Source: Candidatus Saccharimonadota bacterium | GTDB lineage: Bacteria; Patescibacteriota; Saccharimonadia; Saccharimonadales; SZUA-47 | Length of the DNA: 39,331 nt | Direction: 5' to 3' | NCBI GenBank assembly: GCA_020428015.1 | Contig: JAGQNQ010000003.1 | Coordinates: forward strand, 1-39,331 | In this document: one piece after another, positions 2,241 to 25,299 of the stretch | How the letters are laid out: each line of letters begins with the position of its first letter | Numbering within the stretch: position 1 is the stretch's first letter | Notes under the pieces: generated by a model | What the model was told of the DNA's origin: nothing | Database searches by the model: none | Seen by the model: the letters and a program-made list of their open reading frames with translations, nothing else | Program-made: the position numbers and the translations under genes

Positions 2241-2251
2241 ACTTGAGATAC

Positions 2252-4009: not shown

Positions 4010-4024
4010 TATATTTTCTCTATA

Positions 4025-4258
4025 TGTGGACAGCCTGGGGAACGGCTCCGCACAAACCCCTGCTTTCTGTGCGAAGCCTGTGCCTTTTTCTAGGCTTATA
4101 CACACGAGCAAGCGTTTGTTTTTTTGGTTTTCCCTTGCAAAAACCACAGGCTATCCGAAAAAATTTCCACATAAGCTACACGATTCTGACCGAAGTTGCA
4201 GGCGAAATATCCCCACATTCCACAGTGCCTATAAAAATAACTATGTACATATATAAGA
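4025..4258. promoter_or_regulatory. Second DnaA-box-like cluster plus AT-rich stretch in the dnaA-dnaN spacer (candidate oriC/DUE)
   Basis: TGTGGACAG at 4025-4033 (reverse complement CTGTCCACA), aTTTCCACA at 4163-4171, cATTCCACA at 4216-4224, then the AT-rich ATAAAAATAACTATGTACATATATAAG at 4231-4257, just before the dnaN SD. Confidence 0.4.
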
Positions 4259-4267
4259 AGGAGAAGC

Positions 4268-5359: not shown

Positions 5360-5405
5360 CGCTCAATAGTTGATAGATGATACCTGATAGTTGATACTAG
5401 ATAGC

Positions 5406-6449: not shown

Positions 6450-7925
6450 TTATTTATAAGATAGTCGAACCATTGATGTGTCATAGCCTATAGACTTTAA
6501 ATATGTTTGAGCATGAGCTTTTGCTTCTTCTTGTAGCGTTTTTGAACCACTTGAACTTACAGGAGCAGTAATTGTCACATCAATATTTATCTTGTTGTTA
6601 AAAAGGTAGGCTTCTGCGGTAAAATCATAGTCATTACGCGGCAGTTTTTGGCTTAATAAGTTATATTGCTTTATTACATTTAAGTCATTAGTTAACACAT
6701 AGTTACCAACATCGTTTCCTCTATCAACCGAAAAATAAAGTTGATTATCTTGGCCCAAACTAAACCCTTTTCCTATGGACTTGAAGTTAGTTGAAAAGCT
6801 AATTCTGTTCGCAATTTTATTTATTGTGTCTAAGTACCAAATTTGTCCAGAATCTACTATATAAAGATTTTGATTGTCGGCTCGAATTAGTGAAGAAGCG
6901 TCGGAACTAACAGTGCTCATCACAGGAGTGGGGCTATTCCCTATTTGATAGATATAAACTAGACCTTCGGAAATATAACTTAGAGTGCTGTCGTCATTTA
7001 GCACAACATCTGTTAGGTTTTTCGGGGATAAATTTATAGGGTCCGACGATAACTTAAGGATAGTAATCTTACCCAGATTAGCTTTTTTTTCTGGCGCATC
7101 GTTAGAATATGATGATGAAAAACCGACATAAGTATCGCCACTACAATAAATACCGCTAACATTTTCAAGGTTGCCAATTTTTGTAGGCTGGCCAGAAGAA
7201 TCGATCTTGAAAACATCCCCGTTTCTAGAAGCCGCACAAAAGTCGGGAGTTGACATATTTGATGATACTAGCGATATATCCACTGAATTATTGTTCACCA
7301 ATTCTCCCTCTTGTATGTAAAATAGCCTTTTCGTTTCTTTGCCGTTGTATAGGTAGGTGTTTCCGGAACTATTTGAGAACAAAAAAACATTCTTATTAAT
7401 AGCAGCAGACGTTACGCTAGAACCTAGTGAAGAAGCACTAAAAACTTGTTTTTCGTTAGCATAATATCTACCCTTATCATCAACTCTCGATAAACTACCA
7501 GAACTCTCATAGGCAGCAATTGTTGGGTTCCCTGAAGTCTTCAGTGCTTGGGCGTCAGAAGACTTATATGGAAGCGTTACATCAGCCTTCTCCCTGGATT
7601 TTATGCTTATAAATTTATTCGTATAGTTTTCCTGGGCATTTCCACCAATTAGGTAATTTCCTTTATTCAATTTAATAGTTTTAACCATTTTCCCCGAACC
7701 AGACCACACTTCTTTATGCGGTGTAACATCAATGTTGTAAAGGACAACAGACTCCCCGTCTGCTAAATCTATACTCAAAGTAGCCCTAGAATAGAGTTTG
7801 TACCCAAACCAAATTGCTAAAACACCAATGAAAACTAATATCGCCAATGCCAGCCTTATTCTGTTATTAGAGCGCAATGTTAACCTCTCTTCCGCCGTTA
7901 GGCCAATTAGAGCATCCTGCCTCAT
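6450..7925 (-). CDS. Membrane-anchored protein of unknown function, last gene of the minus operon (possible beta-propeller ectodomain)
   Basis: 491-aa ORF with one N-terminal TM helix (RIRLALAILVFIGVLAIWFGYKL), followed by a Ser/Asn/Tyr-rich region with recurring strand-like blocks. ATG 7925 overlaps the upstream gene by 59 nt. In-frame TTG 7877, preceded by GGAAGAGAGG, is an alternative start. Confidence 0.6.
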   Translation of the reverse strand: MRQDALIGLTAEERLTLRSNNRIRLALAILVFIGVLAIWFGYKLYSRATLSIDLADGESVVLYNIDVTPHKEVWSGSGKMVKTIKLNKGNYLIGGNAQENYTNKFISIKSREKADVTLPYKSSDAQALKTSGNPTIAAYESSGSLSRVDDKGRYYANEKQVFSASSLGSSVTSAAINKNVFLFSNSSGNTYLYNGKETKRLFYIQEGELVNNNSVDISLVSSNMSTPDFCAASRNGDVFKIDSSGQPTKIGNLENVSGIYCSGDTYVGFSSSYSNDAPEKKANLGKITILKLSSDPINLSPKNLTDVVLNDDSTLSYISEGLVYIYQIGNSPTPVMSTVSSDASSLIRADNQNLYIVDSGQIWYLDTINKIANRISFSTNFKSIGKGFSLGQDNQLYFSVDRGNDVGNYVLTNDLNVIKQYNLLSQKLPRNDYDFTAEAYLFNNKINIDVTITAPVSSSGSKTLQEEAKAHAQTYLKSIGYDTSMVRLSYK

Positions 7926-9834
7926 CAGTTACCCCTTGTGGGATCTGAAGGCCGTTAGTTAACGGGTTCAAAGTCTCTTTACCGTTGGAGTTTGCAGCCC
8001 CTTCAGGTAGCGCCCCGAAGGGCCAAGATTTGTACATATTTAAGTGTAAGTGAGGGCCAAGACTTACTCCGGTGTTGCCGACTTCCCCAATCTGGGTACC
8101 GGCTGATACCGACGCTCCCTCTGAGACACCACTCGAAATGGCACTAAGATGACCGTAGTGGCTCCAGATGCCATTGCCCTGATCAATAACGATTAAGCTG
8201 CCATAAGCAGAATGCCATCCAGCAAAAACAACTGTACCATTTTGCATGGCAATAACCTTCGTTCCAGTAGGTGCGGCTATGTCTATCCCCGAATGGTAGT
8301 AGGACCCGCCACTAACTGTTTTGTGGCGTAAATCAGACCAACAGGAAGTGATTCTTCCGTAGGGAAGCTCATCGACTACTACTGGCCATAGAAGTTGACC
8401 AGAGGCCAAAGCACCGACCCCACAAGTGCTGCTACCAGCAGGGCTATAACCAAAGTAGGCAATGTAAGTCATTGCACCGGGCGGGTTGTCTATGCCAGAA
8501 ACGGTCTCGCCCCAATGTTTCCCACTCGAAGTCACACCGCCTTTATTGCCGCTCGTACCAACAGGTCGTTCCATGCCTACGCCGTCAGGCCCTAAATGAT
8601 TTTCATCATACAAATTCATTACATATGGAGCGATTCCCGGCTCCCAAGGACCCCCCTCCTCCACAGGAACGTTTTTATATAAGTAACCTCGGTGGTATGC
8701 TAAAAATGCATATTGCAAATCCTGAAAGCTCATATTTGCGGAAACTGTAACGTTATATACACCTTTTGCATTACCTTCAAAAATTTTATAAGCAGCTTCT
8801 CCGCTCTCGAGGAGAGTTTGCGGAGTATTATTTGTATCTACAGCTTTTTGGCCCAGGGGTTCTCCCCCAAGCATAGAGCGATTTGGGTCTGCGCCCGCCT
8901 CACGAAAATGAAGTGCTCCAAAAACTTGCCAAGGAATGCCGAATTCAGAAGATAGCTCTTCATATACTGATTTGTTTTGGGTAACTCTTTCCTCAAGGCC
9001 GCTTAATCGTTGTTTAGCAATTTCTGGTAAAGCAGACCCAGACGCTGTAGAAGTAGAAGTTTCACTTAAGTTTCTACCTACAGCACTTTGTATTATCGAG
9101 ATAAGCAGTTTTGTACCTTCAGGTATACTCGGATGTATTTTGTCAGAATCCATTAAAGGTGAAGTAACCCCAGTACTTATTGAATCTGGAGTTGAGTCTG
9201 ACGGGTATACATAAGAGAAAAAGTCCGCGATTGTATAGTTATATCTACTTTCGTCAGCATATTTCATTATTGCAGCATTTGCTTTTCCAGCAGAGTCAGC
9301 GATAGCTTGAGTGGAGTTAGCGCTAGTATTGACCCAAACAACTCTAGTGGTCTTGATGGAATTTAGTTTATCTAAAAATTCAGGAATTTTTTTATCATAA
9401 TTATCGGAGTTGGTCCCGAGAACAACCACTACTGTACCAGCTAGTCTAATTTTGTCGGCATCTGCATCTAGGGCCTCAAGGGCGTTTTGTGATTTCTGAC
9501 CTCCTCCAGATATTGATCGTCCAACAGAACTATTGCTACCAGTGACAGTAATTCCTGAATCTTCGAAAGTTGTTTGAATATTCGGTGAAACTGACTCCAT
9601 ACGAGCTAACCATGAGTCGCCAATAAAGTACACTCCTTCAGTAGAAATAGTAGCATCACTGCTACATGTTTGTGGATCTTGTGGATCTCTATAATCTAGG
9701 CCTTTGTTTATAGAATCAATGTCTCTTTGAGTCAGAGGCAGTAGAGCGCTTACAGAAGGCTGGAAAATATAAATATTGATAACAATAAGCAAGAACAAGG
9801 TAAGAATTTTATTTAATATTTTATTGCTTTTCAT
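7867..9834 (-). CDS. Secreted multi-domain cell-wall hydrolase: SGNH/GDSL esterase domain, unassigned middle domain, C-terminal M23 (LytM-type) peptidase
   Basis: Signal/anchor MKSNKILNKILTLFLLIVINIYIF. SGNH blocks: FIGDSW (block I), VVLGTNSDN (III), DKIHPS (V). M23 motifs: HSGIDIAAP (HxxxD) and GPHLHLN (HxH). Start ATG 9834 has a perfect GGAGG SD and lies 5 nt after the upstream stop; the track's 9870 start is rejected. Confidence 0.8.
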   Translation of the reverse strand: MKSNKILNKILTLFLLIVINIYIFQPSVSALLPLTQRDIDSINKGLDYRDPQDPQTCSSDATISTEGVYFIGDSWLARMESVSPNIQTTFEDSGITVTGSNSSVGRSISGGGQKSQNALEALDADADKIRLAGTVVVVLGTNSDNYDKKIPEFLDKLNSIKTTRVVWVNTSANSTQAIADSAGKANAAIMKYADESRYNYTIADFFSYVYPSDSTPDSISTGVTSPLMDSDKIHPSIPEGTKLLISIIQSAVGRNLSETSTSTASGSALPEIAKQRLSGLEERVTQNKSVYEELSSEFGIPWQVFGALHFREAGADPNRSMLGGEPLGQKAVDTNNTPQTLLESGEAAYKIFEGNAKGVYNVTVSANMSFQDLQYAFLAYHRGYLYKNVPVEEGGPWEPGIAPYVMNLYDENHLGPDGVGMERPVGTSGNKGGVTSSGKHWGETVSGIDNPPGAMTYIAYFGYSPAGSSTCGVGALASGQLLWPVVVDELPYGRITSCWSDLRHKTVSGGSYYHSGIDIAAPTGTKVIAMQNGTVVFAGWHSAYGSLIVIDQGNGIWSHYGHLSAISSGVSEGASVSAGTQIGEVGNTGVSLGPHLHLNMYKSWPFGALPEGAANSNGKETLNPLTNGLQIPQGVTDEAGCSNWPNGGREVNIAL

Positions 9835-9839
9835 AAATC

Positions 9840-12800
9840 TTAACCTCCGGTTGTTGAGAGGTGCCACCACTCACAACCCCCTTCATCTTTTCCGCCTCTT
9901 ATCTCAGTCCCATCTGAGTTAGAGCCTACGCACTGAAGAAGTAAACCAAACTTGTTGGAGTTTGCCGCAACCCATTCAAGACAAGGATATTGACCAACAC
10001 CGCTTAGGAAGCTTTCCCTTCCCCTACCGTTTCCAGCCACGTAACTTTTACCGCCTCCTTGACAACTTATATCAACAGCAGCACCATACTGATGATTTGA
10101 GTATCCAGGTTTCGCATATGTGCCTGCTCCAGCTCCACCTGCGTATCCTCTAATCTGGGACGCCATATCCCTAAATCCATATGTTCCTCTAAATGTATAT
10201 CCAGCTGCCTCCATTGCATTGAATAAATCGTCATAAGCCTTTGCTACTACTGAGTTAATTTCAACGCCGTGAACGCTGCACAGAGTTATGGAGTATTTTG
10301 TGCCCTTTATATATGCTTCTGGCTCAATCCTTAGGAAGCCGATAGTCGGGCTTTGCGGACAAGGAATTTTGTCTGTATTCTTGGGCTCAAGAGGTACCCC
10401 AGCTATTAGATCAGTTGGGACAGTATTAGACCCAGACCCTGTACCAATAGCGCTGGAACTATCAAGGTCAAAAATTTTTGTTAGTGAGTCTACTACTACA
10501 TCGTCTAGCAAACATGGATTTGATTTAGTGTAGATTTTCTCTCCTGTTTTAGAGTCAGTCCTAGCGCTTGATTCACGGTCGTGTTCATACTGCGAACACC
10601 TCTCGGGAGTTAATGTATCTGGGTCAACTGATAGTGCCTGGTCGTCAACGGCAAAACCATATTGTGTTACATCAAAAAGGCTAGAACGGTCAATATCGCT
10701 AAATGCTGAGGTCTTCTTATGGAGCCCAAATAGTGAAGATAATGTATCTATAAAACCAAGGTTAGTTAACCCGATACTGATAGACTCGCCTTGAAATGGT
10801 ATGGATTCACCGATTGCCATAAGGCCAGAGGTAGCTAGAGAATATGTATTATTTAGGCTAAAATATCTTTCAAAAACACTTTCAGTTTTTAGCATTTCAG
10901 CATTGTTTTTTGCAATTTCTACGTCTAGTTGAGTCTGTTGCGCGGAAGATAAAACCGTCCCGCCAAGGCCCACAGTCTCACCAGTTTCTGGGTCTTTATA
11001 ACCCTTAGCAAAAGAATTGGAGATAACATCAAGGGATCCCCCAAATTGGGTAGCCAATTTATAACCTCCAGCAGCAGCATCTAGACTAGAAGTGAAGACG
11101 ACTTTACTTATATTTTCAAACGCCCATATTGCAATTCTTCCTACTTGATCGGTAATATAGTCTATACCGTCGCCTACTATCGGGATATCTTGCAGGAAAG
11201 ACAGTAATGTACTGGCTATTCCAGAGATAGCCCAGTTTATACCTTTTAGCGCGCCATGTACTATGGGTTGAATCTTTGAACCAGGGGTACATCCAACGTA
11301 AGGTATGGGTAGGAAGCATTTATTATAGATATCTAAAGTAAGTTTTAAGGGTGGGAAATAATTTTTTAAAGCTTTCCATCCATCTTCAATAAAGCTACCG
11401 GGGTTTACTGTTAGTTCAGGGCAAACCAGGGGGTCGTCTTCGCCCTGTAATATCTTGCCATCTTCACATTCATTTACGCTTTTCGGCGAAATATTATTAA
11501 TCGACTGCCATAATCGACTTTTGTCATAACCAAAAAATTTTTGGACAACTGCTCCCTTGTCTTCAAGTGCTGACTCTGAGGATATAGCATCGTCACCAGC
11601 AACTAGCCAAGCCTGCCCATAGTCTGCCAGAGCCTGTTCTCGTAGTTGCTTTGCATATCCGCTTATTACACCTTTGTTTATTTTCTTATCTACCTGATCT
11701 ATCATGTCTAGTACCGATGCCGCCAAATAAACCTGACCTACTATGGGGACGCTGGATGCCGCGGCTTTGGACGCTGCTTCAGCGTCATATTCAAAAAATT
11801 TCTCAAGTATAATAGCAGTCATTTTTTTAGCTATATAGTCTGACATGCTTGAAGCTCCCAGATCTTCAATATCTTTCGCAATTTTTTCAACACTTTCTTT
11901 CCCGGCTTTTTCTACAATTTCTTGTGCGGCTTTTGACGCTTCTCGTTCAATCTTATCTGGGCTACAGTCTGTTGCAAAACAAAGTAAGTATACAGCCGAC
12001 TTTGAACTTATCGGGCTAGCCACTCGGTTTATTAACTTGTATTCAAGTTTCTTCAAGGCACTTATCTTTATATCGCTGATTTCGTCTTTTTTAGCACAGG
12101 CGATAATGCACCATTTACTTGCTTTATATTTTGATGCGAGCAGGCTTCGCAAGTGTCTTCTTTTAATAACGCCATCGAATTCAGTGTCTTGTTTCATTAT
12201 TTTAACAACTTCTTTGCCTACGGTATTCCGTCCGTATGTGCCAACTTCTCCCTTAACGCCAAAACTATTTGTTTTAAATACCTTAATCTTGTTTTTGTCC
12301 CTCGTGTCTAGTTCAAACGACAAACCATGATTATTAAAAAGTCGATCTTCTATTTTTCCATTTTTCCAGCTTCTGTAGAGTTTAGTTGTCAAAACAGTGC
12401 CGGCAGGGAAACTATTACAGCTAGCATCCACCTTAACGCCACAGGCCTTAGACGGTATAATAATATTCTGTACATACTTATCAACATATGTTTCGACGCG
12501 GGTCTCCAGTGCATAATTAACTCTGTTCATGAAAGCGTCAGTCATTTTAGTAGTCATTTGTTTTATTATTAGTGTAGGCAAAAAAGCAACTGCACCAAAT
12601 ACACTGACAACCAGCACAAGTATCCCAAGGGTAATGGCGGTCTTTTTCTTGTTTGATTTTCCCTTTCCAGAAATATATCTAGGGTTATTGTTCTCGCCAT
12701 CTGTTTCTTCATCAGTATCGTTCAGTGCGTCTTCCTCGCTACTAGATGCGGTTTCATTGCCGTCTTTTGTTGATGCTCTAGCTTCTCTTTCCGGGACTTC

Positions 12801-13076
12801 ACTCTCTTGCACGTCTTGAATAGTTTCGTCTGTGGCGTCACCTTGAAGAAACTCTGGCCTTATATCTTCCGAGCCAAAAGGTGCCGACGAATCTTCATCT
12901 CCACTTGCATCATCTGGTGAAACTGGTTCATCTGCTCGATCACCACTAGCAAAGTTACTTCTTTTTGTAGGGCTATTTAAAATAGGTGATTTCGAATAAG
13001 GGTTAAGCCTAGAGACTGACTTTCTGGAGAATTTTACATTATAACGGCGTCGTCCACCTGGGAGTTTTGTTGCCAT
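9840..13076 (-). CDS. Large (1078-aa) membrane-anchored protein with C-terminal VanY/M15B-type (LAS-family) peptidoglycan peptidase domain
   Basis: An acidic, low-complexity N-terminus is followed by one TM helix (AITLGILVLVVSVFGAVAFLPTLII) and a ~750-aa unassigned ectodomain. The C-terminal part has SNHQYGAAVDI (H-x6-D) and EWWHLS, as in VanY / D-Ala-D-Ala carboxypeptidase-like zinc peptidases. Confidence 0.75.
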   Translation of the reverse strand: MATKLPGGRRRYNVKFSRKSVSRLNPYSKSPILNSPTKRSNFASGDRADEPVSPDDASGDEDSSAPFGSEDIRPEFLQGDATDETIQDVQESEVPEREARASTKDGNETASSSEEDALNDTDEETDGENNNPRYISGKGKSNKKKTAITLGILVLVVSVFGAVAFLPTLIIKQMTTKMTDAFMNRVNYALETRVETYVDKYVQNIIIPSKACGVKVDASCNSFPAGTVLTTKLYRSWKNGKIEDRLFNNHGLSFELDTRDKNKIKVFKTNSFGVKGEVGTYGRNTVGKEVVKIMKQDTEFDGVIKRRHLRSLLASKYKASKWCIIACAKKDEISDIKISALKKLEYKLINRVASPISSKSAVYLLCFATDCSPDKIEREASKAAQEIVEKAGKESVEKIAKDIEDLGASSMSDYIAKKMTAIILEKFFEYDAEAASKAAASSVPIVGQVYLAASVLDMIDQVDKKINKGVISGYAKQLREQALADYGQAWLVAGDDAISSESALEDKGAVVQKFFGYDKSRLWQSINNISPKSVNECEDGKILQGEDDPLVCPELTVNPGSFIEDGWKALKNYFPPLKLTLDIYNKCFLPIPYVGCTPGSKIQPIVHGALKGINWAISGIASTLLSFLQDIPIVGDGIDYITDQVGRIAIWAFENISKVVFTSSLDAAAGGYKLATQFGGSLDVISNSFAKGYKDPETGETVGLGGTVLSSAQQTQLDVEIAKNNAEMLKTESVFERYFSLNNTYSLATSGLMAIGESIPFQGESISIGLTNLGFIDTLSSLFGLHKKTSAFSDIDRSSLFDVTQYGFAVDDQALSVDPDTLTPERCSQYEHDRESSARTDSKTGEKIYTKSNPCLLDDVVVDSLTKIFDLDSSSAIGTGSGSNTVPTDLIAGVPLEPKNTDKIPCPQSPTIGFLRIEPEAYIKGTKYSITLCSVHGVEINSVVAKAYDDLFNAMEAAGYTFRGTYGFRDMASQIRGYAGGAGAGTYAKPGYSNHQYGAAVDISCQGGGKSYVAGNGRGRESFLSGVGQYPCLEWVAANSNKFGLLLQCVGSNSDGTEIRGGKDEGGCEWWHLSTTGG

Positions 13077-13101
13077 AGAAAATATCTAGCGCCCTCTTTA
13101 T

Positions 13102-15012
13102 TTATTGTTGCAACTGTACGGTATCATTATACCCTGTTTGTTCTAAATTTACTGCTTGCGCAGGTCCTCGATTTTGCGCTCGATTCGGATCAGTTGTTAT
13201 GAGTTCAGTTTCGGTTGGACTAGCAGCAATTTGAATATGCACATGGTTTTGTCCTGCAAAGAATAAGCCTTGTCCTACCGGGAACTGACTCAGGCGTTTC
13301 TTTTCTTCACTTGTGAGCTTGAAGACGTCACTTAGTACATCAACCGCTGACGGCGACTGCTTCAGCAGGATTTGCATACTGGCGTTAGCCACAATTGCCC
13401 TACCCATGCGTGATCCCATGAAGTCCTCGACATCCTGGGTGATAGTCGTGATACCTAGGTTATATTTACGTGCACGTTTAGCCAGACTGAATAAGAAGTT
13501 GGCAGAGTCTTCGTATTTCATTAGCTGCCACGCCTCATCCACGATTAATATGCGTTTTTTTTGGTCTGTCTTGGTCTTGTTCCAAATGTAGTTTAAAACG
13601 ATATACATGGCAACTGGTCGTAGCTCGTCCTCCAGATCTCGAACGTTAAATACTACCAGTGGGTTGTTTATGTCGATATTGCTCGGTTGACTAAAGATGC
13701 CCGCAAATGTTCCCGTTGTATATTTTCGCAGACGCTGAGCAAGTTGTGGCCCGGTACCACCCATGTGGAGGAGTGTGTCGTAAAGATGTGCTATGGTTGG
13801 TGCTGGTGATTTATGAGTCAAGGGGTCGTTCGTAATACCGGCTTTCGCATAGGTTTCAATCAGTGCCGCATCAAGATCTGATTCTTCGACTGGTGTAAGT
13901 GTTGGCATAATCGGTCCGTTACCACCCTGGTTTGCCATGGCAGCTTGGGCGCCCCCCATCATCAGCCTGAGTAGACCATGAAGGGTTATAAGGTTGCTGC
14001 GCAAAGCGTTATCACTTTCTTCTGGATCGGTCACATTCGGTAGATCAAAGGGGTTTATTCGTGTATTACTGTTGAGCGACAAGCGGACGTATGCTCCGCC
14101 AACCGCATCACACATGCGTTGGTATTCGTTTTCAGGATCGATTATGAATACTTCGGTACCAAACATCATGCTGCGTAGTGCTTCTAATTTCACCGTGAAA
14201 CTTTTACCCGCTCCAGATTTTGCAAATACCACTGAGTTGCCATTTTCTAAACTGAATCTGTCAAAGATTACTAACCCAGAGTTGTGCATGTTAATTCCAT
14301 ACATAATCCCCGTATCCTGAGTCAGGTCGGCACTTGTGAACGGAAATGCGGTACTAATTGCGCCTGTGTTCATATTGCGTCGAATCTGTAATTGATCTGT
14401 GAACTGAGGAATTGTTGAGTTAAGTCCTTGTTCTTGTTGGGCACTCGCAGGCTTACTATAGACAAGTTGCTGCGCAAGCACACTTTCAACCTTATGCGAA
14501 ACAAATTCCAGCTCTTCCATAGAACCTCCGTATATCGTGAAATAGAAGCCAAAGCGGAAAAATCGTTCTTCGCCAACTTGCAGCTTATCACGGAGTTCTT
14601 CAGCGTCCTGGATAGCAACTTGCTTTCCTGGGTCACGCACACGACCTTTTTCAGCATCAATCTGTAGTCCAGCCTCAAGTTGACCTACTTTCTTTTTCAG
14701 GTTTTCTAGTACAACTTGACTTTCAACTGGGTAGACAAATAGTGAAATATCAATAATTTCGTCTAGGTTCACCATGCTAGACAGCCAGCCAGTATAAATC
14801 TGTCGGGGATAGCCGTAGACATAGTAAGTACGACCAATGCGTGTACCGATTTTGAACACACTACTTTCAAACTCAAGGCTGGCGGGTGCAATAAAGTCAC
14901 GAAGTGCTGTTATTCCCTTCTGGAAGGCAGCCTGAACCTCAAGCTGTTCTCGAACCGCTTGGGCTTGGGCCTGGGCTATTGGATCTAACTTTTCTTTTCT
15001 GCCGAATGCCAT
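13102..15012 (-). CDS. virB4: VirB4/TrsE-type T4SS ATPase
   Basis: 636-aa ORF with Walker A VFAKSGAGKSFTVK and Walker B KRILIVDEAWQL. The Gram-positive VirB4-like N-terminal region reads RTYYVYGYPRQIYTGWLSSM...IDISLFVYP. Confidence 0.88.
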   Translation of the reverse strand: MAFGRKEKLDPIAQAQAQAVREQLEVQAAFQKGITALRDFIAPASLEFESSVFKIGTRIGRTYYVYGYPRQIYTGWLSSMVNLDEIIDISLFVYPVESQVVLENLKKKVGQLEAGLQIDAEKGRVRDPGKQVAIQDAEELRDKLQVGEERFFRFGFYFTIYGGSMEELEFVSHKVESVLAQQLVYSKPASAQQEQGLNSTIPQFTDQLQIRRNMNTGAISTAFPFTSADLTQDTGIMYGINMHNSGLVIFDRFSLENGNSVVFAKSGAGKSFTVKLEALRSMMFGTEVFIIDPENEYQRMCDAVGGAYVRLSLNSNTRINPFDLPNVTDPEESDNALRSNLITLHGLLRLMMGGAQAAMANQGGNGPIMPTLTPVEESDLDAALIETYAKAGITNDPLTHKSPAPTIAHLYDTLLHMGGTGPQLAQRLRKYTTGTFAGIFSQPSNIDINNPLVVFNVRDLEDELRPVAMYIVLNYIWNKTKTDQKKRILIVDEAWQLMKYEDSANFLFSLAKRARKYNLGITTITQDVEDFMGSRMGRAIVANASMQILLKQSPSAVDVLSDVFKLTSEEKKRLSQFPVGQGLFFAGQNHVHIQIAASPTETELITTDPNRAQNRGPAQAVNLEQTGYNDTVQLQQ

Positions 15013-15032
15013 CTAGTTATCTCCCCAATACA

Positions 15033-15857: not shown

Positions 15858-15867
15858 CTGTCCTTAC

Positions 15868-17076: not shown

Positions 17077-17098
17077 TTATCTTGGACGCGGGCTTGTG

Positions 17099-18112
17099 CT
17101 ATTTGAGCCAGTATAGACGAGGGCCACGGATTTTAGGAATCTTTTTTAAGTGGCCATGACGTGCTTCGTCAATGACATGTTCGTGCTCGTGAGCCTTATG
17201 TAGTGCGTGATCGTATCGCTCCTTTGACTTAAGTATTGCGACTTTTTCAGCCTCAGAGATTGCCATAGTCGACAGTACTCTTTTTAGATCAGCAGTGTCC
17301 AGGTCAAGAATATCTCCATAGAGTCGATGCTCTTTCACGGCTTCTCGATGGAGCTCTGTTACTCGGTTTGCGTGTTTTGCTATGCCCAGTTCAAATCGCC
17401 GTTCGGCATTAGTTCCTGGAGTAAACTGTTCGGGGTGTTGAAGAGGGCCACCCTTTCTGTACGGTCCAGTATAGCCGACTTGATTAGCCGGGAAACTATT
17501 TGCCTTAGCCAAATCTTGACCTCTTAAAGAACCCGGGTTTCTGGTTTCTCGATGGAATGCTCCACCCCACCTGTCTAGTGAGCTATAAGGACGAACTGGC
17601 TCGACTGCACCGGTTTGGCGATTAGTCTGCGTTCTATCTTCAGGGTGTAGTCGTAAATGTGCCCTTTCAGCTATCTCCATTCGGCGTATATCTGCCAAGC
17701 TCTTCGCTCCTTTTCCTGTTTTGGCGGGGCCACGGCGACGAGCTATCTTGTGAGCAATTGCTTCCGCACCTTTCTTTACGCCATACGCTGCTCCGATTGC
17801 ACCGAGTGCAAGTATAGGCAATGATACTATATTGTTCCCTGAGGTTATTTCTGGCAGATTAATTCCGACCAAAGCCTCGGTGTTTTCTGGGGAGTGACTT
17901 TGAGCCTTAGTTGAATTTCCCATTTCTTCTGCTTTGAAAAAGGCATGCTCCACCGGTTCTGTAGTGTGATTTGCTGCAACTCCCGTGAGATCGATATTAA
18001 ATATATGTCCGTCGGGTCCAACAACTTGGACCGGGCTGCTGTTTATCTGTCCGACCTCTGTTGCTATAATCTTTGTATCTTGGTTAGGATTGAAATTTGG
18101 AGCATTTTCCAT
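17099..18112 (-). CDS. Unknown bitopic membrane protein with a basic, His-rich C-terminal half
   Basis: 337-aa ORF with a single central TM helix (IVSLPILALGAIGAAYGV). TATAAT (18125-18120) lies 7 nt before the ATG with no SD. Confidence 0.6.
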   Translation of the reverse strand: MENAPNFNPNQDTKIIATEVGQINSSPVQVVGPDGHIFNIDLTGVAANHTTEPVEHAFFKAEEMGNSTKAQSHSPENTEALVGINLPEITSGNNIVSLPILALGAIGAAYGVKKGAEAIAHKIARRRGPAKTGKGAKSLADIRRMEIAERAHLRLHPEDRTQTNRQTGAVEPVRPYSSLDRWGGAFHRETRNPGSLRGQDLAKANSFPANQVGYTGPYRKGGPLQHPEQFTPGTNAERRFELGIAKHANRVTELHREAVKEHRLYGDILDLDTADLKRVLSTMAISEAEKVAILKSKERYDHALHKAHEHEHVIDEARHGHLKKIPKIRGPRLYWLK

Positions 18113-18167
18113 GAGTTAGATTATAGCAAAAAATACCAAAATTGTCAATATGCTTATGCTGTATTTA

Positions 18168-18437
18168 TTATTTGACTTTAGTACAGTATCTTTGAGGGTC
18201 TTCTTCTAACTCATGAGGTAGAGAACGCCAAGCTTCAAGGGTGTACATTTTAAGTCCGAGGACGCCATAGTCTACTTTATAGAAGCCAAAGTTATCGGTT
18301 GACAATGCTTCGGGGTGTGATTCGGTTAGGTCTTGCGCCATAACACCAACGTACTTTTGCTTACTCCAAATATATTCAAAGCTGTAGAGTTTGATGCCTG
18401 CACCCGTAGTTGTAAGGTACGAGATATTTTTTTTCAA
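18168..18437 (-). CDS. Peptidase S74-type intramolecular chaperone domain (phage tail-fibre/endosialidase C-terminal domain), in frame with the upstream ORF across a TGA
   Basis: (R)LKKNISYL..IKLYSFEYIW..YVGVMAQDLTESHPEAL....FYKVDYGVLGL matches the S74 pattern SDxRxKxNI ... F.y ... G(F/V)(I/M)AQ(D/E) ... (V)(D/N)Y. There is no ATG before residue 31 and no SD before TTG 18437. See the finding on the in-frame TGA. Confidence 0.6.
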   Translation of the reverse strand: MKKNISYLTTTGAGIKLYSFEYIWSKQKYVGVMAQDLTESHPEALSTDNFGFYKVDYGVLGLKMYTLEAWRSLPHELEEDPQRYCTKVK

Positions 18438-18440
18438 GCG

Positions 18441-21230
18441 TCAGTCTGACGTAGTGCCGGTGCCCGCGCCAGGTGGTCCAGGAGGTTGAATCCCCTGCTG
18501 TGCTGCCTGCTGAGCTCGCGCTCCTTGCAGGGCGTCAACACCATACTCTTTGCGACGATCCAAAAATTCTTTTGATTCGTTTGATTGAGGAAGTTGCTGG
18601 ATGAGCTCTCTGATTGTTGTTGGTGGTGGGTTTGTCACGGTTCGTTTTACTACGTTGCCGTTCACATCAATTTGAGGCTGACCATTTTGTCCATATACCA
18701 TTTGTTCAGTGGTTAATGTCACACCCGAAATTTGTTGACCCATAAGCTCATTGGCAAAAGCAGCTGCGTTTTGGGGTGCGGCCTGTCCCATCGCGTCGTA
18801 TAGCCCGGCAGCAGCTGCAGTTGCTGCAGAGACATCATCAATGTTCGCAGCACGCCCCAGCGATTCAATTACTGTTCCATTGTTCATGCTGTCGATAAGT
18901 CCCTGGATCCTTCTTGCGTGGGCCTGGCCAATAGCAGCTGCACTGTTCGGCTTACCGTACATGGCCTCTTGAGGGGTTGCAGAGTCAAGTACATCGTCAT
19001 ATATGATTTGCGAAGCCTCTGCCTCAAGTCCTTCTCGCCGATCCCGCGCGATAATATTATTTCGATCGCCGTGACTTCCTGCTTGATATAATCTACCCAT
19101 TTGTGCCGCCATTGTGGCATAACCAGCTTTTCCGAGTGCAACTTGCCCAGCCTGCACAGAAGCACTTCGCATTCGAGCCAGTGCAGCACCTGCTCCAGCG
19201 CGGTCGTCGCCATATGCCTCGTTGATATCATTTAGCATTGCGGCAACATCAACACCGGTATGTCGCTCTCCATTCTCGTCAACGTAATCGTACTGGTATG
19301 CAGTTCCAGTTGCTGCTTGAGCCTCAACCCTCGCCTTATTAAAAGCCTCAAATCCAACCTTTTTCTGTGCTCTTACAATCGATGCAACCGCACTATCCAG
19401 GGCAGCAGGATCTGTAGTGAAGCGATCCCCTCCCTGTCGGATTAGCTCTGCTCGAATATCGGACTCGTCTTTAAATCGCGCAGCCCAAAGCATGTCGTCG
19501 TCTCCTTTAATGACCGCAAAGTCGTGATCTTTTTGGGCGAATTCCTGTGCCTCATGTCCTGAATGAGCATTCATTCCTTGTGCTATGTTTCGGCGCCATT
19601 TGCGTGGGTTGGCACTAAAAGCGTTTGGATCCTTTGCTTGATAGGCAAATTCCCCAGCTCTGTTAAGTCGTGCTCGTATTCCAGTTTCGCCCGCACGCTT
19701 ATACCTATTACCTGAAGCAGCATCATGAGCAAGTTGTTTTCGCTTTTCAGATCGATATTTCCTTGAACGGTCGAATAATCCCTTGCTTCGGTCATTGACC
19801 ATGCCGGCAATGCTTGAGAAAGCGTTACCCGCGTACTGAAATGCCTTAGGAATGAAAAAGAAGGGGCCTATGTAGGCAGTAAGTTTTATCAATATAATAA
19901 ACACTCCACCGTCACCGGCAGCACCTGCAGTGTTGTTTATTAACACGGCAAATCCCCTACCAGTCATAAGTAACCCAACAATTATTGGATAGAGAAGTAA
20001 TAATTTTGAAAAAGTTCCCCACCATAACTTCCATAGCTTATCGTTACCTGGGAAAATCCAAGATAGAATTGCCACAGGTGCCATTATCACTAAGAAAATT
20101 ATCAAAAGTTCTCTGACGGTTAATATAAAGAAAATAATTAACAAAGCTAAAGCTGCAGTGCCTAGGTAACTGGCAAGTATTCCTATAGAAACTGCTCCGA
20201 TACCGAAAAGTGCTACAGCAGCTAGTGGTCCAAAAGTAGCGATAGCAACATCATTACCAATGCTTGCATTAAAAACATTCTGCAACGTTAGTTTGTCTGC
20301 TCCACCAAAAGGCTGAGCTATAAGCCCGCCTACGCCCCTACCGATAGCATTTGTCATTTCAATCATTATCCTTGCGACGTCAAATGATAGTGCAATAAAG
20401 ATAATAGCAATAATCAAGCGGGGCATTGCCCTCTTAACTGTATAGGCGTCTAGAAATTTAAATCCGAGAGCTGTCCCAATAACCATTACTAGCATAATAG
20501 GTATTAATAGAACGTAGGCTATGTTCCGTATCCTGGCCCATGCTAGTTCCACTGATCCTGTTTGCCCACTTGCCTGATTTTGAAGATATTCAGGGTTGAC
20601 CTCTAGGGCCTGCCGCACCCTTCCGTCTAAGTAATCAACTACTTCATTTGCACCCCTTAGAAGAGGGCATAAAATAAAACTAAACTCACCTCCCTCATCT
20701 TCACAGCTGGCAGAGGCACCACTGGCGGTTTGTGGTAGGCCAGCCGAGCCCACAGATGATGTGTTGGGGTTGGTTGCAACAAAGTTACAGCTGATTCCAT
20801 CCCATGTCCCATTTGCATCTCTACAAGCATTTGAATCCGTTATATTAACAACCGTTCCTTCGACGTTGGGGTTAAGTTCTACTATATTGCAGTCAACACC
20901 TACAATCTGATTTCCTTTTCCGGCATCAACTACGGAACCCCAAAGACCGAGTACATCAGCCGTATCAGGGTTGTCCATAATAATATCTTCACCACAAACA
21001 AAGTTCGGGGGCAGGTATATTAGCCAATTTTTGGTAGCGACATCTCTTTTATCGACACCTGCCAAGGTATACGTTACCCCCCTGAAGCTAACTTGCTGGC
21101 CTGAAATATACGCTGACTCAGCACTCGCCAAGAGAGTCATAGACATAAACGAAACTAAAAACACAAACAAAATTATCGGAAATCTGAACGATTTCATTTT
21201 TGATAAAAACATATGCACTAATTTTAACAC
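18441..21230 (-). CDS. VirB6/TrbL-like polytopic T4SS channel protein with an N-terminal secreted Cys-containing head domain and a ~450-aa hydrophilic C-terminal tail
   Basis: 929-aa ORF: signal peptide (..FMSMTLLASAESA), a ~150-aa ectodomain, at least 6 TM helices (e.g. IAYVLLIPIMLVMVIGTALGF, LALLIIFFILTVRELLIIFLVIMAPVAILSWIF), then a long Ala/Gly/Gln-rich tail ending ..GAGTGTTSD-TGA. The VirB6 call rests on topology and operon context. The start is ambiguous (GTG 21230, ATG 21212 or ATG 21197). Confidence 0.65.
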   Translation of the reverse strand: MLKLVHMFLSKMKSFRFPIILFVFLVSFMSMTLLASAESAYISGQQVSFRGVTYTLAGVDKRDVATKNWLIYLPPNFVCGEDIIMDNPDTADVLGLWGSVVDAGKGNQIVGVDCNIVELNPNVEGTVVNITDSNACRDANGTWDGISCNFVATNPNTSSVGSAGLPQTASGASASCEDEGGEFSFILCPLLRGANEVVDYLDGRVRQALEVNPEYLQNQASGQTGSVELAWARIRNIAYVLLIPIMLVMVIGTALGFKFLDAYTVKRAMPRLIIAIIFIALSFDVARIMIEMTNAIGRGVGGLIAQPFGGADKLTLQNVFNASIGNDVAIATFGPLAAVALFGIGAVSIGILASYLGTAALALLIIFFILTVRELLIIFLVIMAPVAILSWIFPGNDKLWKLWWGTFSKLLLLYPIIVGLLMTGRGFAVLINNTAGAAGDGGVFIILIKLTAYIGPFFFIPKAFQYAGNAFSSIAGMVNDRSKGLFDRSRKYRSEKRKQLAHDAASGNRYKRAGETGIRARLNRAGEFAYQAKDPNAFSANPRKWRRNIAQGMNAHSGHEAQEFAQKDHDFAVIKGDDDMLWAARFKDESDIRAELIRQGGDRFTTDPAALDSAVASIVRAQKKVGFEAFNKARVEAQAATGTAYQYDYVDENGERHTGVDVAAMLNDINEAYGDDRAGAGAALARMRSASVQAGQVALGKAGYATMAAQMGRLYQAGSHGDRNNIIARDRREGLEAEASQIIYDDVLDSATPQEAMYGKPNSAAAIGQAHARRIQGLIDSMNNGTVIESLGRAANIDDVSAATAAAAGLYDAMGQAAPQNAAAFANELMGQQISGVTLTTEQMVYGQNGQPQIDVNGNVVKRTVTNPPPTTIRELIQQLPQSNESKEFLDRRKEYGVDALQGARAQQAAQQGIQPPGPPGAGTGTTSD

Positions 21231-21280
21231 TGTTTATAAAGCCCACAAAAACAAAATAACGGATAGCAAAAACCATATAC

Positions 21281-21309
21281 ATGACAAAAATGTACTATTT
21301 AGCTAAACT
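21281..21309 (+). promoter_or_regulatory. Candidate promoter of the plus-strand pilin operon in the 85-nt divergent control region
   Basis: ATGACA (21281-21286), a 17-nt spacer, then TAAACT (21304-21309), with ATG 21316 only 6 nt further on. A small inverted repeat TACAT-N7-ATGTA (21279-21295) overlaps the -35. Confidence 0.35.
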
Positions 21310-21315
21310 GATGCT

Positions 21316-21921
21316 ATGGATAATCAAGAACAAAAAAATAACGACTATGCATTTTTAGTCGACCCTTTGCAACATGTTACCCCTCCTGCCAATAATAGGT
21401 TCAACAAGAAATACCTAATCATAATTTTAGCTATGGTTGTAGCAGTAATGCTTACTGTGTTGGCGATTATTGCTTCGGTAGTTAGTAATACAAACAATGC
21501 GGTTAATGAAGACATCCAAGTTCAGAAAATCACATCATCAGATGCAGCGCCTGCAATTGAAAAAATGCAAAATTTAATATCTGCATTCTCTAATCAAGAC
21601 TATAAAACAGCGGTTAATCTGATTAGTCCAGAGTCGCAGATTTATTTATCAGGTGTTAATCAGCCAACATTAAATGCATATACAGGAGAAGGAGTTCAGT
21701 GGAGTTCATGCAAGCAAATTCAAAAGGATAGCTACGATACCACAGAAGACATATCTAATTCTCAAACATTTCAGGTGATTTATATAGACTACTCATGCCC
21801 ATATAAAGGAGAAGACAACAATAAAAGGGTTACATTTGATGTTCGGAAAAACCTATCGATAAATAATAGTGACTGGAAGTTATACTATATAGTTGTAGTA
21901 GAAGGTGCAAATGAGCAGTAA
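21316..21921 (+). CDS. Unknown membrane-anchored protein (first gene of the plus operon)
   Basis: 201-aa ORF with one TM helix (YLIIILAMVVAVMLTVLAIIASVV) and then a small globular ectodomain. It overlaps the next gene by 11 nt. Confidence 0.6.
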   Translation: MDNQEQKNNDYAFLVDPLQHVTPPANNRFNKKYLIIILAMVVAVMLTVLAIIASVVSNTNNAVNEDIQVQKITSSDAAPAIEKMQNLISAFSNQDYKTAVNLISPESQIYLSGVNQPTLNAYTGEGVQWSSCKQIQKDSYDTTEDISNSQTFQVIYIDYSCPYKGEDNNKRVTFDVRKNLSINNSDWKLYYIVVVEGANEQ

Positions 21922-23182: not shown

Positions 23183-23608
23183 ATGAAAACATTAAAAAGT
23201 TTCGTTGCAGTGTCTTACATGTTGCTTTTAACTCTCGTTGCCGTTCCCTTTTTCACCATTCCAGCATCTGCCGCAGCTTGTAATGACTTTGATAAAACAG
23301 TACTTGGAATCCCAACATGGTACAAATACCTGCAGGGTGAGGATGTAAGCGGAAAATGTCGTCCGATAATCAACGCTTCTAAGGATGCCCTGCCGATAGG
23401 CCTCGCAGTGCTTGAGGCCGCTATGACACTCGGAGGCCTCGTTGCAGTTGTCATGATCTTTGTAGGATCGTTCAAGTTTGTAATTGCTCAAGGTGAGTCA
23501 AAAAAAATTACTGAAGCTAAAAATACCGTTATTAACTCAGTCGTCGGACTCGTTATCGTTATCATATCGACCAGGATCGTTTCATTTATTGCAGGGAGAA
23601 TAGGATAG
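23183..23608 (+). CDS. TrbC/VirB2-type T4SS pilin paralog 2
   Basis: Signal peptide ending ASAAAC, a Cys pair, then ..LGGLVAVVMIFVGSFKFVIAQGESKKITEAKNTVINSVVGLVIVIISTRIVSFI. The ATG directly follows the previous stop. Confidence 0.7.
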   Translation: MKTLKSFVAVSYMLLLTLVAVPFFTIPASAAACNDFDKTVLGIPTWYKYLQGEDVSGKCRPIINASKDALPIGLAVLEAAMTLGGLVAVVMIFVGSFKFVIAQGESKKITEAKNTVINSVVGLVIVIISTRIVSFIAGRIG

Positions 23609-23612
23609 TAAG

Positions 23613-23903
23613 ATGCAGGTTTTACATCTAATCGCACAAATAAGTATTAACAAAGGGGATCTAAACATCCCTCAATCGGATCCTTCGAGCAGTACCGTTT
23701 CTTCTGCTCTGACCTTGGCATTTGGCATCATGGGAGCCATATCGTTCTTACTAATAGTTGTATCTGGACTGAGGTTCTCTTTGAGCCGAGGAAATAGTGA
23801 ATCTGTAGCAAAAGCCCGCAACAGCATTATTTATTCGGCTGTTGGATTAGTTATCTCAATGTTAGCCTTCGCTATTGTGCGGTTTGTCGTGAGGAGTGTC
23901 TGA
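23613..23903 (+). CDS. TrbC/VirB2-type T4SS pilin paralog 3 (short, no signal peptide or Cys pair)
   Basis: ..FGIMGAISFLLIVVSGLRFSLSRGNSESVAKARNSIIYSAVGLVISMLAFAIVRFVV. Its stop overlaps the next start (ATGA). Confidence 0.6.
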   Translation: MQVLHLIAQISINKGDLNIPQSDPSSSTVSSALTLAFGIMGAISFLLIVVSGLRFSLSRGNSESVAKARNSIIYSAVGLVISMLAFAIVRFVVRSV

Positions 23904-24319
23904 TGATAGGCACGAAATCCGAAGCACGAAATCCGAAATGGCTGCAGATAATCTTTGGGATCCTAATTAGTTTCTGGGTTATTTTGGCGCCACTCACTGC
24001 TATGGCGCAGTTTGATCCACTTGCTGCGGCCTGTCAGGAAAATCCCAACGCAACGGCTTGTACAGAGAGTAAAAATGCTCAAAATCAGAACGAGAATCCA
24101 GTTACTGATACCGTCAACAAGGTAGCAAATCTGATCGCAATTGCTACAGCCGTCATATCTATCATCGTCATAATAATTGCAGGCATTTCTATGATATTTT
24201 CTGCTGGTGAGTCGTCCTCAATAAAATCTGCAAGAGACGCAATTATATATGCGGCAGTAGGTATAGTTGTCGTTGCTCTGGCAAGAACAATAGTGATTTT
24301 TATAGTAAATAGGATTTAA
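23903..24319 (+). CDS. TrbC/VirB2-type T4SS pilin paralog 4
   Basis: Signal anchor, a Cys pair (AAACQENPNATAC), then ..AVISIIVIIIAGISMIFSAGESSSIKSARDAIIYAAVGIVVVALARTIVIFIV. Confidence 0.7.
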   Translation: MIGTKSEARNPKWLQIIFGILISFWVILAPLTAMAQFDPLAAACQENPNATACTESKNAQNQNENPVTDTVNKVANLIAIATAVISIIVIIIAGISMIFSAGESSSIKSARDAIIYAAVGIVVVALARTIVIFIVNRI

Positions 24320-24330
24320 CGGGGGTAGTA

Positions 24331-24738
24331 ATGATTCGAAAAAAGATACTAACAAGTGCGGTGGGTGTCCTACTGCTTTTTGCTCCTTTTACGGCAGCGA
24401 TTACAGCTAACGCAGCAGTGGACTCCGCAAGTGACGCAAAGGCAGCGGTATGTGATGGTTTAGGGGCGGCTTCTGGAGGTAACGGTTGTGAAGATCCAGA
24501 TGGAAGTTCCTCTTTAAGTGGTACCGTCGCAGCCGCAATTAACCTTATTTCGCTGGTCGTTGCTGTTATAGCGGTATTTATGGTGATTGTCGGCGGGTTG
24601 AAGTATGTCACAAGCCAAGGAGAGTCATCGAGCACCGCGAGCGCCAAGAATACCATAATCTATGCGATAGTTGGTCTTTTGATTGCCGGGTTGGCTCAAG
24701 TGATCGTTCGTTTTGTCGTGAACAGAACTACCTCCTAG
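24331..24738 (+). CDS. TrbC/VirB2-type T4SS pilin paralog 5
   Basis: Signal peptide (..ITANAA), a Cys pair (VCDGLGAASGGNGC), then ..LVVAVIAVFMVIVGGLKYVTSQGESSSTASAKNTIIYAIVGLLIAGLAQVIVRFVV. Confidence 0.75.
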   Translation: MIRKKILTSAVGVLLLFAPFTAAITANAAVDSASDAKAAVCDGLGAASGGNGCEDPDGSSSLSGTVAAAINLISLVVAVIAVFMVIVGGLKYVTSQGESSSTASAKNTIIYAIVGLLIAGLAQVIVRFVVNRTTS

Positions 24739-24870
24739 ACACCAACGACCAATACTAGTGCTCCGGCTCGGTGGGGTACAGTAAATCCAAATATTCGTTA
24801 GACTTGAGAATCATGACGCGCTTATGATATAAAGTAAAGTAACGTAATCAAAAGAAGGAAAGACGAAAGA

Positions 24871-25299
24871 ATGAACAGAATTAAGAGAATTTTACTAACG
24901 ACAGCAGCAGCTTTAGGACTAGTTATGCCCCTCGCAGCTCCGGCAATGGTGAGTGCGGCCGACACAAACGTTTCTGGAAACCTAAATTGTGGTGCGGCTC
25001 TCGACTTTGATGGAAGTGACTGTGATAATTCAACTGCTGGTACGGACGTAGACAATCTAGTTACGAGCGTAATCAACATCATTTCACTTGTTGTTGGTGT
25101 CGTCGCCGTCATCATGATCATCATTGGTGGTCTTCGCTACATCACCTCAGGCGGTGAATCAGGCAGTGTCACTGGTGCAAAGAATACGATTCTCTATGCG
25201 GTTGTTGGACTCATTGTCGTGGCATTATCACAGGTTATCGTACGTTTTGTCGTGGATCGAGCGACACTAAACGGCGGTTCATCAACAGCTGGTGATTAA
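24871..25299 (+). CDS. TrbC/VirB2-type T4SS pilin paralog 6 (closest to paralog 5; may have its own promoter)
   Basis: Signal peptide (..AMVSAA), a Cys pair (NCGAALDFDGSDC), then ..LVVGVVAVIMIIIGGLRYITSGGESGSVTGAKNTILYAVVGLIVVALSQVIVRFVV. It follows a 132-nt spacer containing TTGAGA-17-ATATAA and SD AAGGAAAG. Confidence 0.75.
   Translation: MNRIKRILLTTAAALGLVMPLAAPAMVSAADTNVSGNLNCGAALDFDGSDCDNSTAGTDVDNLVTSVINIISLVVGVVAVIMIIIGGLRYITSGGESGSVTGAKNTILYAVVGLIVVALSQVIVRFVVDRATLNGGSSTAGD

Follow-up and report, generated by a model that had tools for sequence, protein, structure and literature searches.

A probable origin-proximal type IV secretion system of Saccharimonadales with a variable head module and an interrupted S74 domain

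Gene content and membrane core of the locus

The stretch analysed here, called the window throughout, is the 39,331-nt stretch at positions 1-39,331 of contig JAGQNQ010000003.1 of a Candidatus Saccharimonadota bacterium (GenBank assembly GCA_020428015.1), and it carries two divergent gene sets, a tightly packed minus operon running from 21230 down to 6450 and a plus operon from 21316 to 25299 (Table 1). This block is very probably a conserved chromosomal type IV secretion system (T4SS) of Saccharimonadales (Saccharibacteria/TM7) and the positional orthologue of SEML1_0004-0019 of Southlakia epibionticum ML1, and its membrane core is of the monoderm, MPF_FATA-derived kind, with a split VirB4, a PrgI/VirB3 protein and an extended VirB6/TrbL-like protein. 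A map of the open reading frames (ORFs) returned the gene layout and coordinates given by a first-pass annotation that had been made from the sequence alone.

The VirB4 ATPase matched positions 157-735 of the NCBIfam model conju_CD1110 with an E value of 5.6e-107 (358.9 bits; cut-off 325) and Pfam P-loop_TraG with E 1.8e-27, and both its Walker A (AKSGAGKS) and Walker B (ILIVDEAW) motifs are intact. For the 274-aa protein encoded directly upstream, matches to NCBIfam TrsD (E 1.2e-6) and to positions 7-100 of conju_CD1110 (E 5.4e-6) were obtained, both under the cut-offs, together with a precomputed annotation as PF26593 (TraC-like); an orthologue lies at the same place next to virB4 in 78 of the 80 related loci described below, with 60-72% identity (median 66%). 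Taken jointly, the two genes constitute a split VirB4, in line with the N-domain role first proposed for the smaller one. The PrgI domain occupies the N-terminal part of a 402-aa protein (E 3.5e-12; 47.1 bits against a gathering cut-off of 27), a counterpart of which was found in 75 of the 80 loci. All six pilins (21905-25299) scored above the gathering threshold of Pfam T4SS_pilin (PF18895), the first one with E 1.9e-6 (28.3 bits; cut-off 26.6) and the other five with E values of 5e-11 to 9e-9, so that the VirB4, PrgI and pilin calls of the first-pass annotation are all carried by profile matches above the cut-offs. Pairwise identity among the six pilins is 15-51% with a mean of 29%; arrays of relatives hold five to nine such genes, and the first pilin of the window is with 425 aa the longest seen (131-337 aa in relatives).

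The 929-aa protein begins with a signal peptide, followed by an extracellular, Cys-containing head (aa ~38-175), seven predicted transmembrane (TM) segments at 234-460 and, at 485-912, a helical-repeat domain on the cytoplasmic side; hydropathy and the positive-inside rule predict an N-out/C-in topology with a positively charged cytoplasmic tail. Indirect evidence from sequence and model suggests that it is VirB6/TrbL-like. PF19590 (TrbL_3) is among the precomputed annotations (E at most 1e-5) of 110 of its 120 homologues and of its counterpart in a sister strain, L081, which is 97% identical; no mention of this family was found in the literature search. When the AlphaFold2 model (predicted local distance difference test, pLDDT, 79.5) was compared with known structures by Foldseek, TrwI/VirB6 of R388 took ranks 1 and 2 (8rtd_L, E 0.41; 7o3v_F, probability 0.75), although these matches, with E 0.4-1.1 and probabilities of 0.63-0.75, are non-significant. 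The protein also stands at the position of SEML1_0013, which is annotated as TrbL/VirB6 with an ARM repeat in S. epibionticum.

Downstream of virB4 two wall hydrolases are encoded, as is normal for Gram-positive T4SSs, where multi-domain wall hydrolases occur that include a LytM/M23 domain in PrgK. The VanY domain that had been claimed for the 1078-aa protein, the positional counterpart of SEML1_0007, was recovered with its HxxxxxxD and ExxH motifs, and the protein has an acidic cytoplasmic N-terminus, a TM segment at 145-172 and a large extracytoplasmic region. The second hydrolase is exported or anchored. Residues ~68-256 of the 656-aa query make up an SGNH-like alpha/beta domain, which is followed by a helical middle and by a C-terminal M23/LytM domain with its metal-binding motifs; the top 50 Foldseek matches were all M23 (best E 6.7e-10). 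Whereas its M23 half is thereby confirmed, the SGNH half of the earlier assignment gave no Pfam match even at E 10 and nothing in a sequence search of PDB. What speaks for it are the motifs G73-D74-S75, G141-T142-N143 and D232/H235 (DxxH), invariant in seven homologues, and an AlphaFold2 model with alternating strand and helix (pLDDT 70-85), for which the Foldseek list was filled by M23 matches. The helical middle domain (8500-9050, aa ~270-465) contains an invariant W-Q-x-F-x-x-L-H-x-R-E-x-G motif and is without a family match; it could be lysozyme-like or a transglycosylase.

Neither the 337-aa nor the 491-aa protein found a family in the Pfam and NCBIfam scans. The 337-aa protein gave no tblastn match in the 80 loci, several of which hold unannotated ORFs of 240-380 aa at the same position. 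When called from its first ATG, the last gene of the minus operon encodes 491 aa and has 59 nt in common with the 3' end of the M23 gene (7867-7925), and the true start may lie downstream. The 201-aa protein, too, was without a tblastn match in the 80 loci and found only itself in a search of 5.8 billion proteins, while jackhmmer detected relatives in about seven of the 80; it is an accessory gene, and from its fitting size and topology a VirB8-like (NTF2-like) fold is possible.

Table 1. Features of the locus and of the adjacent origin region in the window
Feature	Position	Strand	Remarks
VirB6/TrbL-like polytopic membrane protein (evidence indirect)	18441..21230	-	929 aa; probable ATG at 21212 gives 923 aa
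S74 remnant, 89-aa ORF	18168-18437 (18168..18443 including in-frame TGA 18441-18443)	-	Pfam S74 E 0.0022, below gathering
337-aa protein	17099..18112	-	one central TM (94-112), basic C-terminal half; no family
PrgI/VirB3-like protein, 402 aa	15868..17076	-	two N-terminal TM and 300-aa C-terminal extension; Pfam PrgI
TrsD-like protein/VirB4 N-domain equivalent, 274 aa	15033..15857	-	NCBIfam TrsD, conju_CD1110 positions 7-100
VirB4 ATPase, 636 aa, MPF_FATA/CD1110 type	13102..15012	-	NCBIfam conju_CD1110, Pfam P-loop_TraG
1078-aa bitopic protein with C-terminal VanY/M15 peptidase	9840..13076	-	Pfam VanY 5.8e-9
SGNH-like and M23/LytM hydrolase, 655/667 aa	7867..9834 (ORF from 9870)	-	Pfam M23 1.4e-29; SGNH by motifs
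491-aa N-terminally anchored protein	6450..7925	-	last minus-operon gene, abuts recF; no family
201-aa bitopic anchored protein	21316..21921	+	TM 30-59, 140-aa outside domain
First, large pilin, 425 aa	21905..23182	+	signal peptide, head module, Cys-rich spacer, C-terminal VirB2-type pilin hairpin
Five further VirB2/T4SS_pilin paralogues (141, 96, 138, 135, 142 aa)	23183..25299	+	Pfam T4SS_pilin
Origin region: DnaA-box-like sites, dnaA, dnaN, recF	2449..6449	+	Pfam, box scan

Conservation, variable modules and genomic setting

In a collection of species-representative genomes 516 relatives of the VirB4 were found, and the loci of the best 80 of these 516, with VirB4 identities of 81-89%, were compared with the window; all belong to metagenome-assembled genomes (MAGs) of Saccharimonadales/Saccharibacteria, some labelled only 'bacterium'. 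Most of the 43 loci of at least 19 kb have the order comF, hsp20, five to nine pilins, then divergently the VirB6-like gene, PrgI, TrsD, VirB4 and variable genes, and finally recF, dnaN and dnaA, and about 40 other Saccharimonadales genomes have the order of the window, which answers the synteny check proposed with the first-pass annotation. Because the same synteny recurs with conserved identity in dozens of Saccharimonadales genomes, the locus is a chromosomal, vertically inherited core feature of this order. Conservation is nevertheless graded along the block, with median identities to the window of 84% for VirB4 and 66% for TrsD against 33-46% for the pilins, 36% for PrgI and 30% for the VirB6-like protein; the hydrolases, at 23-30%, often escaped detection, as the VanY protein was found in 28 of the 80 loci (median 24%), the M23 protein in 12 (30%) and the 491-aa protein in one. 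This 80-species comparison quantifies a slow-evolving cytoplasmic motor against fast-evolving outward parts (pilins, VirB6-like head and hydrolases), a contrast that fits an adaptation to different host surfaces.

One of the outward parts occurs twice in the window. A rare head module of about 120 aa is shared by the VirB6-like protein (residues 20-150) and the first pilin (residues 20-148) with 42% identity over 132 aa (E 2e-31), confirming a similarity already noticed in the first-pass annotation. As a general rule head sharing was rejected, since the window is alone in it among 50 loci with a VirB6-like gene. A search of 1.84 billion representative proteins gave only 12 matches to the module. 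Four are the N-termini of further large T4SS pilins and three those of further VirB6-like proteins, one falls on a protein that has a peptidoglycan-binding domain, and the rest are weak. The idea that a segment between the regions encoding the two heads inverts or recombines was considered and rejected; such a switch is implausible because the only inverted match is 41 nt long with 78% identity.

Strain-level variation could be followed in L081, a sister strain represented by a 12.4-kb contig (GCA_020428065.1; 97.7% nucleotide identity) that was found via the 201-aa neighbour. Most genes are 99.5-100% identical between the two strains, and the differences cluster in the VirB6-like head, the PrgI extension and the last pilin. 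The head module is the most variable patch, with 57 differences within 250 nt (20750-21000) and 20 of the 26 amino-acid changes of the protein at residues 87-139, and a second hot spot with 86 nucleotide differences covers the C-terminal extension of PrgI (16000-16500, residues 163-318). Both may be recombination tracts or chimeric consensus sequences of the MAGs. At the end of the array L081 has seven pilins against six in the window (L081 9556-10531; window 24750-25299), where the last window pilin (24871-25299) is a chimera that corresponds to the sixth pilin of L081 in its 5' part (89% nucleotide identity) and to the seventh in its 3' part (97.8%), which suggests unequal recombination within the array as the origin of the copy-number difference.

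The VirB6-like protein had further been described as followed by an S74 chaperone domain. A same-frame S74 ORF indeed follows it, but as a separate 89-aa ORF behind a TGA (18441-18443) and not within the 929-aa ORF. In endosialidase S74 domains the cleavage site is marked by a Ser, which forms a catalytic dyad with the Lys five residues further on. The TGA lies inside this SDxRLK motif (TTSD-stop-RLKKNI) and separates Ser from Lys, and the S74 of the window scores 18.7 bits against a Pfam gathering cut-off of 22, so that a contiguous S74 domain with a PF13884 match and the Ser/Lys dyad was not found in the window. L081 reads TTSDRRLKKNI with a CGA codon (Arg) and encodes a single product of 992 aa, and the 89 residues downstream of the TGA are 100% identical in both strains, whereby the simplest reading of the window stop is a single C-to-T change (CGA to TGA), either as a recent nonsense allele or as a base-calling error. 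In-frame fusions of S74 to the VirB6-like protein were detected in 11 of 120 database homologues (~10%) and in 4 of the 80 loci, with motifs such as SDKRLKRDI, SDRRLKRNI or SDQRLKTNV, in which Ser and Lys are five residues apart; PF13884 was above gathering in five of the six fused homologues that were scanned.

Alternatively, the UGA might be decoded by programmed readthrough or recoding, by which the full-length fusion would also be made. The 89 codons beyond it are intact and without a change from the sister strain, and the UGA is followed by C, a weak termination context, but this explanation is very unlikely, as L081 has CGA and the codon at this position is a sense codon, mostly Arg, in each of the 15 fused homologues. 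UGA is also not generally a sense codon in this organism, because dnaA, dnaN, valS and other genes read intact under code 11. Recoding was hence rejected as the principal explanation, with CGA in the sister strain and all other genes normal under code 11. The conserved Ser is followed by the stop at a distance of two residues, and therefore the truncated product would end almost at the mature end expected after self-cleavage. Since the tail that carries S74 is predicted to be cytoplasmic, the module is not a tail-fibre-like surface element; it is a minority accessory that is cut off in the window. No paper linking S74 to VirB6 or to Saccharibacteria was found in the literature search.

The two operons are flanked by core genes. 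The left flank holds jag, yidC, rnpA, a cluster of DnaA-box-like sites, dnaA, dnaN and recF, with rnpA, yidC, dnaA, dnaN and recF at 744-6449, in agreement with the origin proximity that had been claimed. Four DnaA-box-like sites with one mismatch lie within 125 nt at the dnaA start (2449-2572), consistent with oriC or a dnaA promoter region; over the whole window such boxes are not above chance (12 seen, 9.2 expected), and this cluster is the only notable one. A promoter scan of the divergent region between the operons performed no better than on shuffled sequences. On the right flank hsp20, comF, tRNAs and housekeeping genes follow. The hsp20 and comF-like genes (25375-26721) stand directly after the pilin array and are syntenic in many Saccharimonadales, with hsp20 present in 31 related loci (median identity 75%). 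Farther downstream, a 698-aa ORF without a Pfam family (35828-37924, plus strand) is located in a stretch of strong positive AT skew and GC skew and lies upstream of a Mur ligase gene (37952-39307).

Proposed function and competing explanations

By analogy with Gram-negative and Gram-positive T4SSs the following mode of action is inferred. VirB4 and its detached N-domain TrsD would dock on PrgI/VirB3 and the VirB6-like protein and would power the extraction of pilins from the membrane and their polymerisation, while the anchored VanY and M23 proteins would cut a local gap in the cell's own wall. In enterococcal systems the wall is opened locally by PrgK and TraG. The result would be a pilus or conduit in contact with the host bacterium, and the conduit may translocate macromolecules needed for epibiotic growth, by export or import. 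The N-terminal membrane anchors of the hydrolases would fit remodelling of the own wall and breaching of the host wall equally well. Transposon sequencing (Tn-seq) of S. epibionticum showed that nearly all genes of SEML1_0003-0021, including hsp20, are essential in epibiotic growth (Wang 2023, PMC10633639). Because the outward parts (pilins, head and hydrolases) evolve fast and because of this essentiality, a host-directed conduit is favoured over conjugation. The host-contact machine proposed in the first-pass annotation is thus compatible with the published Tn-seq data for the orthologous cluster; it agrees with published opinion and is not new.

Alternatively, the locus might be a conjugative or mobilising T4SS for DNA export, either the remnant of an ICE (integrative and conjugative element) or a system of chromosomal conjugation, for which the relaxase and coupling protein would be encoded at another place in the genome. 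In favour of this, VirB4 falls into the conjugative family model conju_CD1110, and the components are those known from Gram-positive conjugation machines. Also, VirD4 homologues far from virB4 occur in many Patescibacteria according to a survey of this group (Quinonero-Coronel 2025, PMC12102498). We nevertheless consider it extremely unlikely. Domains of a MOB relaxase, a type IV coupling protein (T4CP; VirD4/TcpA), an integrase or a replication initiator were absent from all scanned ORFs of the 39-kb window in the Pfam and NCBIfam scans, as the first-pass annotation had stated for the block. The flanks are core genes in conserved synteny. The locus sits between recF, hsp20, comF and tRNAs at the same place in dozens of species with 81-89% VirB4 identity, and this chromosomal, vertically conserved synteny makes an ICE very unlikely. 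Moreover, the same survey describes relaxases as nearly absent, with only 109 among all the Patescibacteria analysed. For S. epibionticum it gives the T4CP, which lies far from the cluster, as non-essential while the T4SS is essential (PMC12102498).

A device for DNA or nucleotide import, comparable to Helicobacter ComB or the Ced system of Sulfolobales and feeding a cell without nucleotide synthesis, has been proposed in a PNAS 2024 perspective (PMC11665869). With it would agree that comF adjoins the pilin array, both in the window and in 19 of the related loci, and that the P-loop region of VirB4 gave weak NCBIfam matches to CedB and CedD. These matches are, however, far under the cut-off and confined to the P-loop region. 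SEML1_0021, the comF neighbour, is non-essential in S. epibionticum, where deletion of comEC abolished competence but left the cells viable; import is an unlikely explanation. Improbable as well is an organelle for adhesion only, that is a host-binding pilus through which no substrate passes. Six pilins, one of them with a large variable head, would suit this role, and no substrate, coupling protein or effector was recognisable in the window scans. Yet adhesion and motility of Saccharibacteria are already served by two type IV pili, and a working translocon would be suggested by the very strong conservation of VirB4 together with a VirB6-like protein that is conserved and has a large cytoplasmic domain.

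Several points weigh against the T4SS assignment and its host-directed reading. When the 929-aa protein and eight homologues were scanned against Pfam and NCBIfam, no TrbL/VirB6 match appeared even at E 10; an alignment of 76 VirB6-like sequences, used as a profile against PDB, returned only noise; and the Foldseek matches to VirB6 lack significance. A VirB8-like component was not demonstrated in the window, and a pilus has not been observed for any of these systems. The window covers 39 kb only, so that a coupling protein or relaxase may lie elsewhere in the genome; in Patescibacteria VirD4 homologues distant from virB4 are common, as stated in the survey (PMC12102498). Finally, what the T4SS of Saccharibacteria does is 'completely unknown' according to a 2024 review (PMC11665869).

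A further, tentative and rather doubtful proposal joins the two variable modules: the head module would be a host-surface specificity determinant with the headed pilin as a VirB5-like tip, and in the S74 subclass the cytoplasmic domain of the VirB6-like protein would be trimerised and then self-cleaved. If true, both readings would give concrete handles on the Saccharibacterial T4SS machine.

Comparison with published systems

The origin-proximal chromosomal T4SS cluster of Saccharimonadales (TM7) has been described in papers from 2020 to 2025, and reviews restate both the T4SS class and its unknown function (PMC12857230, PMC11665869). The combination of genes, which had been flagged as noteworthy, does not hold up as new: since pilin arrays, hydrolase genes that follow virB4, the absence of relaxase and coupling protein, and the proximity to dnaA are all published (Wang 2023; Quinonero-Coronel 2025), the locus adds no new class. 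What it adds are two testable details, which as far as the literature search went are unreported and which we regard as modest. These are the hypervariable head on the channel protein and the first pilin as a candidate host-recognition element, and the S74 trimerisation module, predicted to be self-cleaving, on the cytoplasmic tail of the channel in ~10% of homologues. S74 fusion and shared head would be worth a line in a comparative study. The Saccharibacterial T4SS is of interest as the first T4SS reported to be essential for its carrier.

The closest described system is that of S. epibionticum ML1, reported as 'an apparent T4SS (SEML1_0006-0019)' that resembles Gram-positive conjugative systems, has essential pilins and is without recognisable coupling and relaxase proteins (PMC10633639). 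Its order is recF (0003), an unknown and a PEGA protein (0004-0005), a lysozyme-like protein (0006), a 1113-aa protein (0007), VirB4 (0008), a 293-aa protein (0009), PrgI (0010), a 998-aa 'T4SS protein' (0011), an NTF2-like protein (0012), a 1088-aa TrbL/VirB6-like protein (0013), six pilins (0014-0019), hsp20 (0020), comF (0021) and tRNA-Ser (PMC10633639). SEML1_0004/0006-0019 and the window agree in order and orientation from recF to tRNA-Ser, in six divergent pilins, in the ARM-like C-terminus of the TrbL/VirB6 protein and in the absence of a relaxase and coupling protein from both clusters. They differ in that the window encodes one large membrane protein and the 337-aa protein where S. 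epibionticum encodes two such membrane proteins, 0011 and 0013, together with the NTF2-like 0012, and in the hydrolases, which are lysozyme-like and glucosaminidase in S. epibionticum but SGNH-like plus M23, and VanY, in the window. Extra in the window lineage are the S74 module, the 201-aa anchored accessory gene and the long, headed first pilin.

According to the survey of Patescibacteria, the T4SSs of this clade are the same as the window in all essentials, with an MPF_FATA-related VirB4 clade, TrsD, PrgI, VirB6, hydrolases by virB4, T4CP homologues mostly far from virB4, and a location near dnaA, dnaN and rnpA; the VirB2 arrays comprise 2-11 genes with ~25% mean identity, compared with 29% for the window pilins (PMC12102498). 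The sections on its results that were consulted make no mention of an S74 fusion or a shared head module.

Compared to the S74 domains of phage endosialidases and tail fibres and of MYRF, the fused homologues have the same S-D-x-R-L-K motif, terminal position and preceding Gly/Pro-rich stretch, whereas here the domain is placed on a membrane channel protein instead of a fibre, its predicted location is the cytoplasm, and in the window a stop separates it. The extended VirB6 proteins TcpH of pCW3, Rickettsia RvhB6 and TraG of F share with the 929-aa protein an N-terminal polytopic VirB6-like region and a large hydrophilic C-terminal domain; in the window the latter is an ARM/HEAT-like helical repeat, with an S74 end in a minority of homologues, and an extracellular head is added at the N-terminus. 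With the Gram-positive MPF_FATA T4SSs (pCF10 Prg/Pcf, pIP501 Tra, pGO1 Trs and CTn2 CD1110) the window has in common a CD1110-family VirB4, PrgI, TrsD, a polytopic and putatively VirB6-like protein and a membrane-anchored multi-domain wall hydrolase, and an outer-membrane core is absent from both. Those systems, however, reside on plasmids or ICEs with a relaxase and a T4CP, use surface adhesins and are without VirB2 pilins, whereas the system of the window has neither relaxase nor T4CP at the locus, is chromosomal and core, and carries six pilins.

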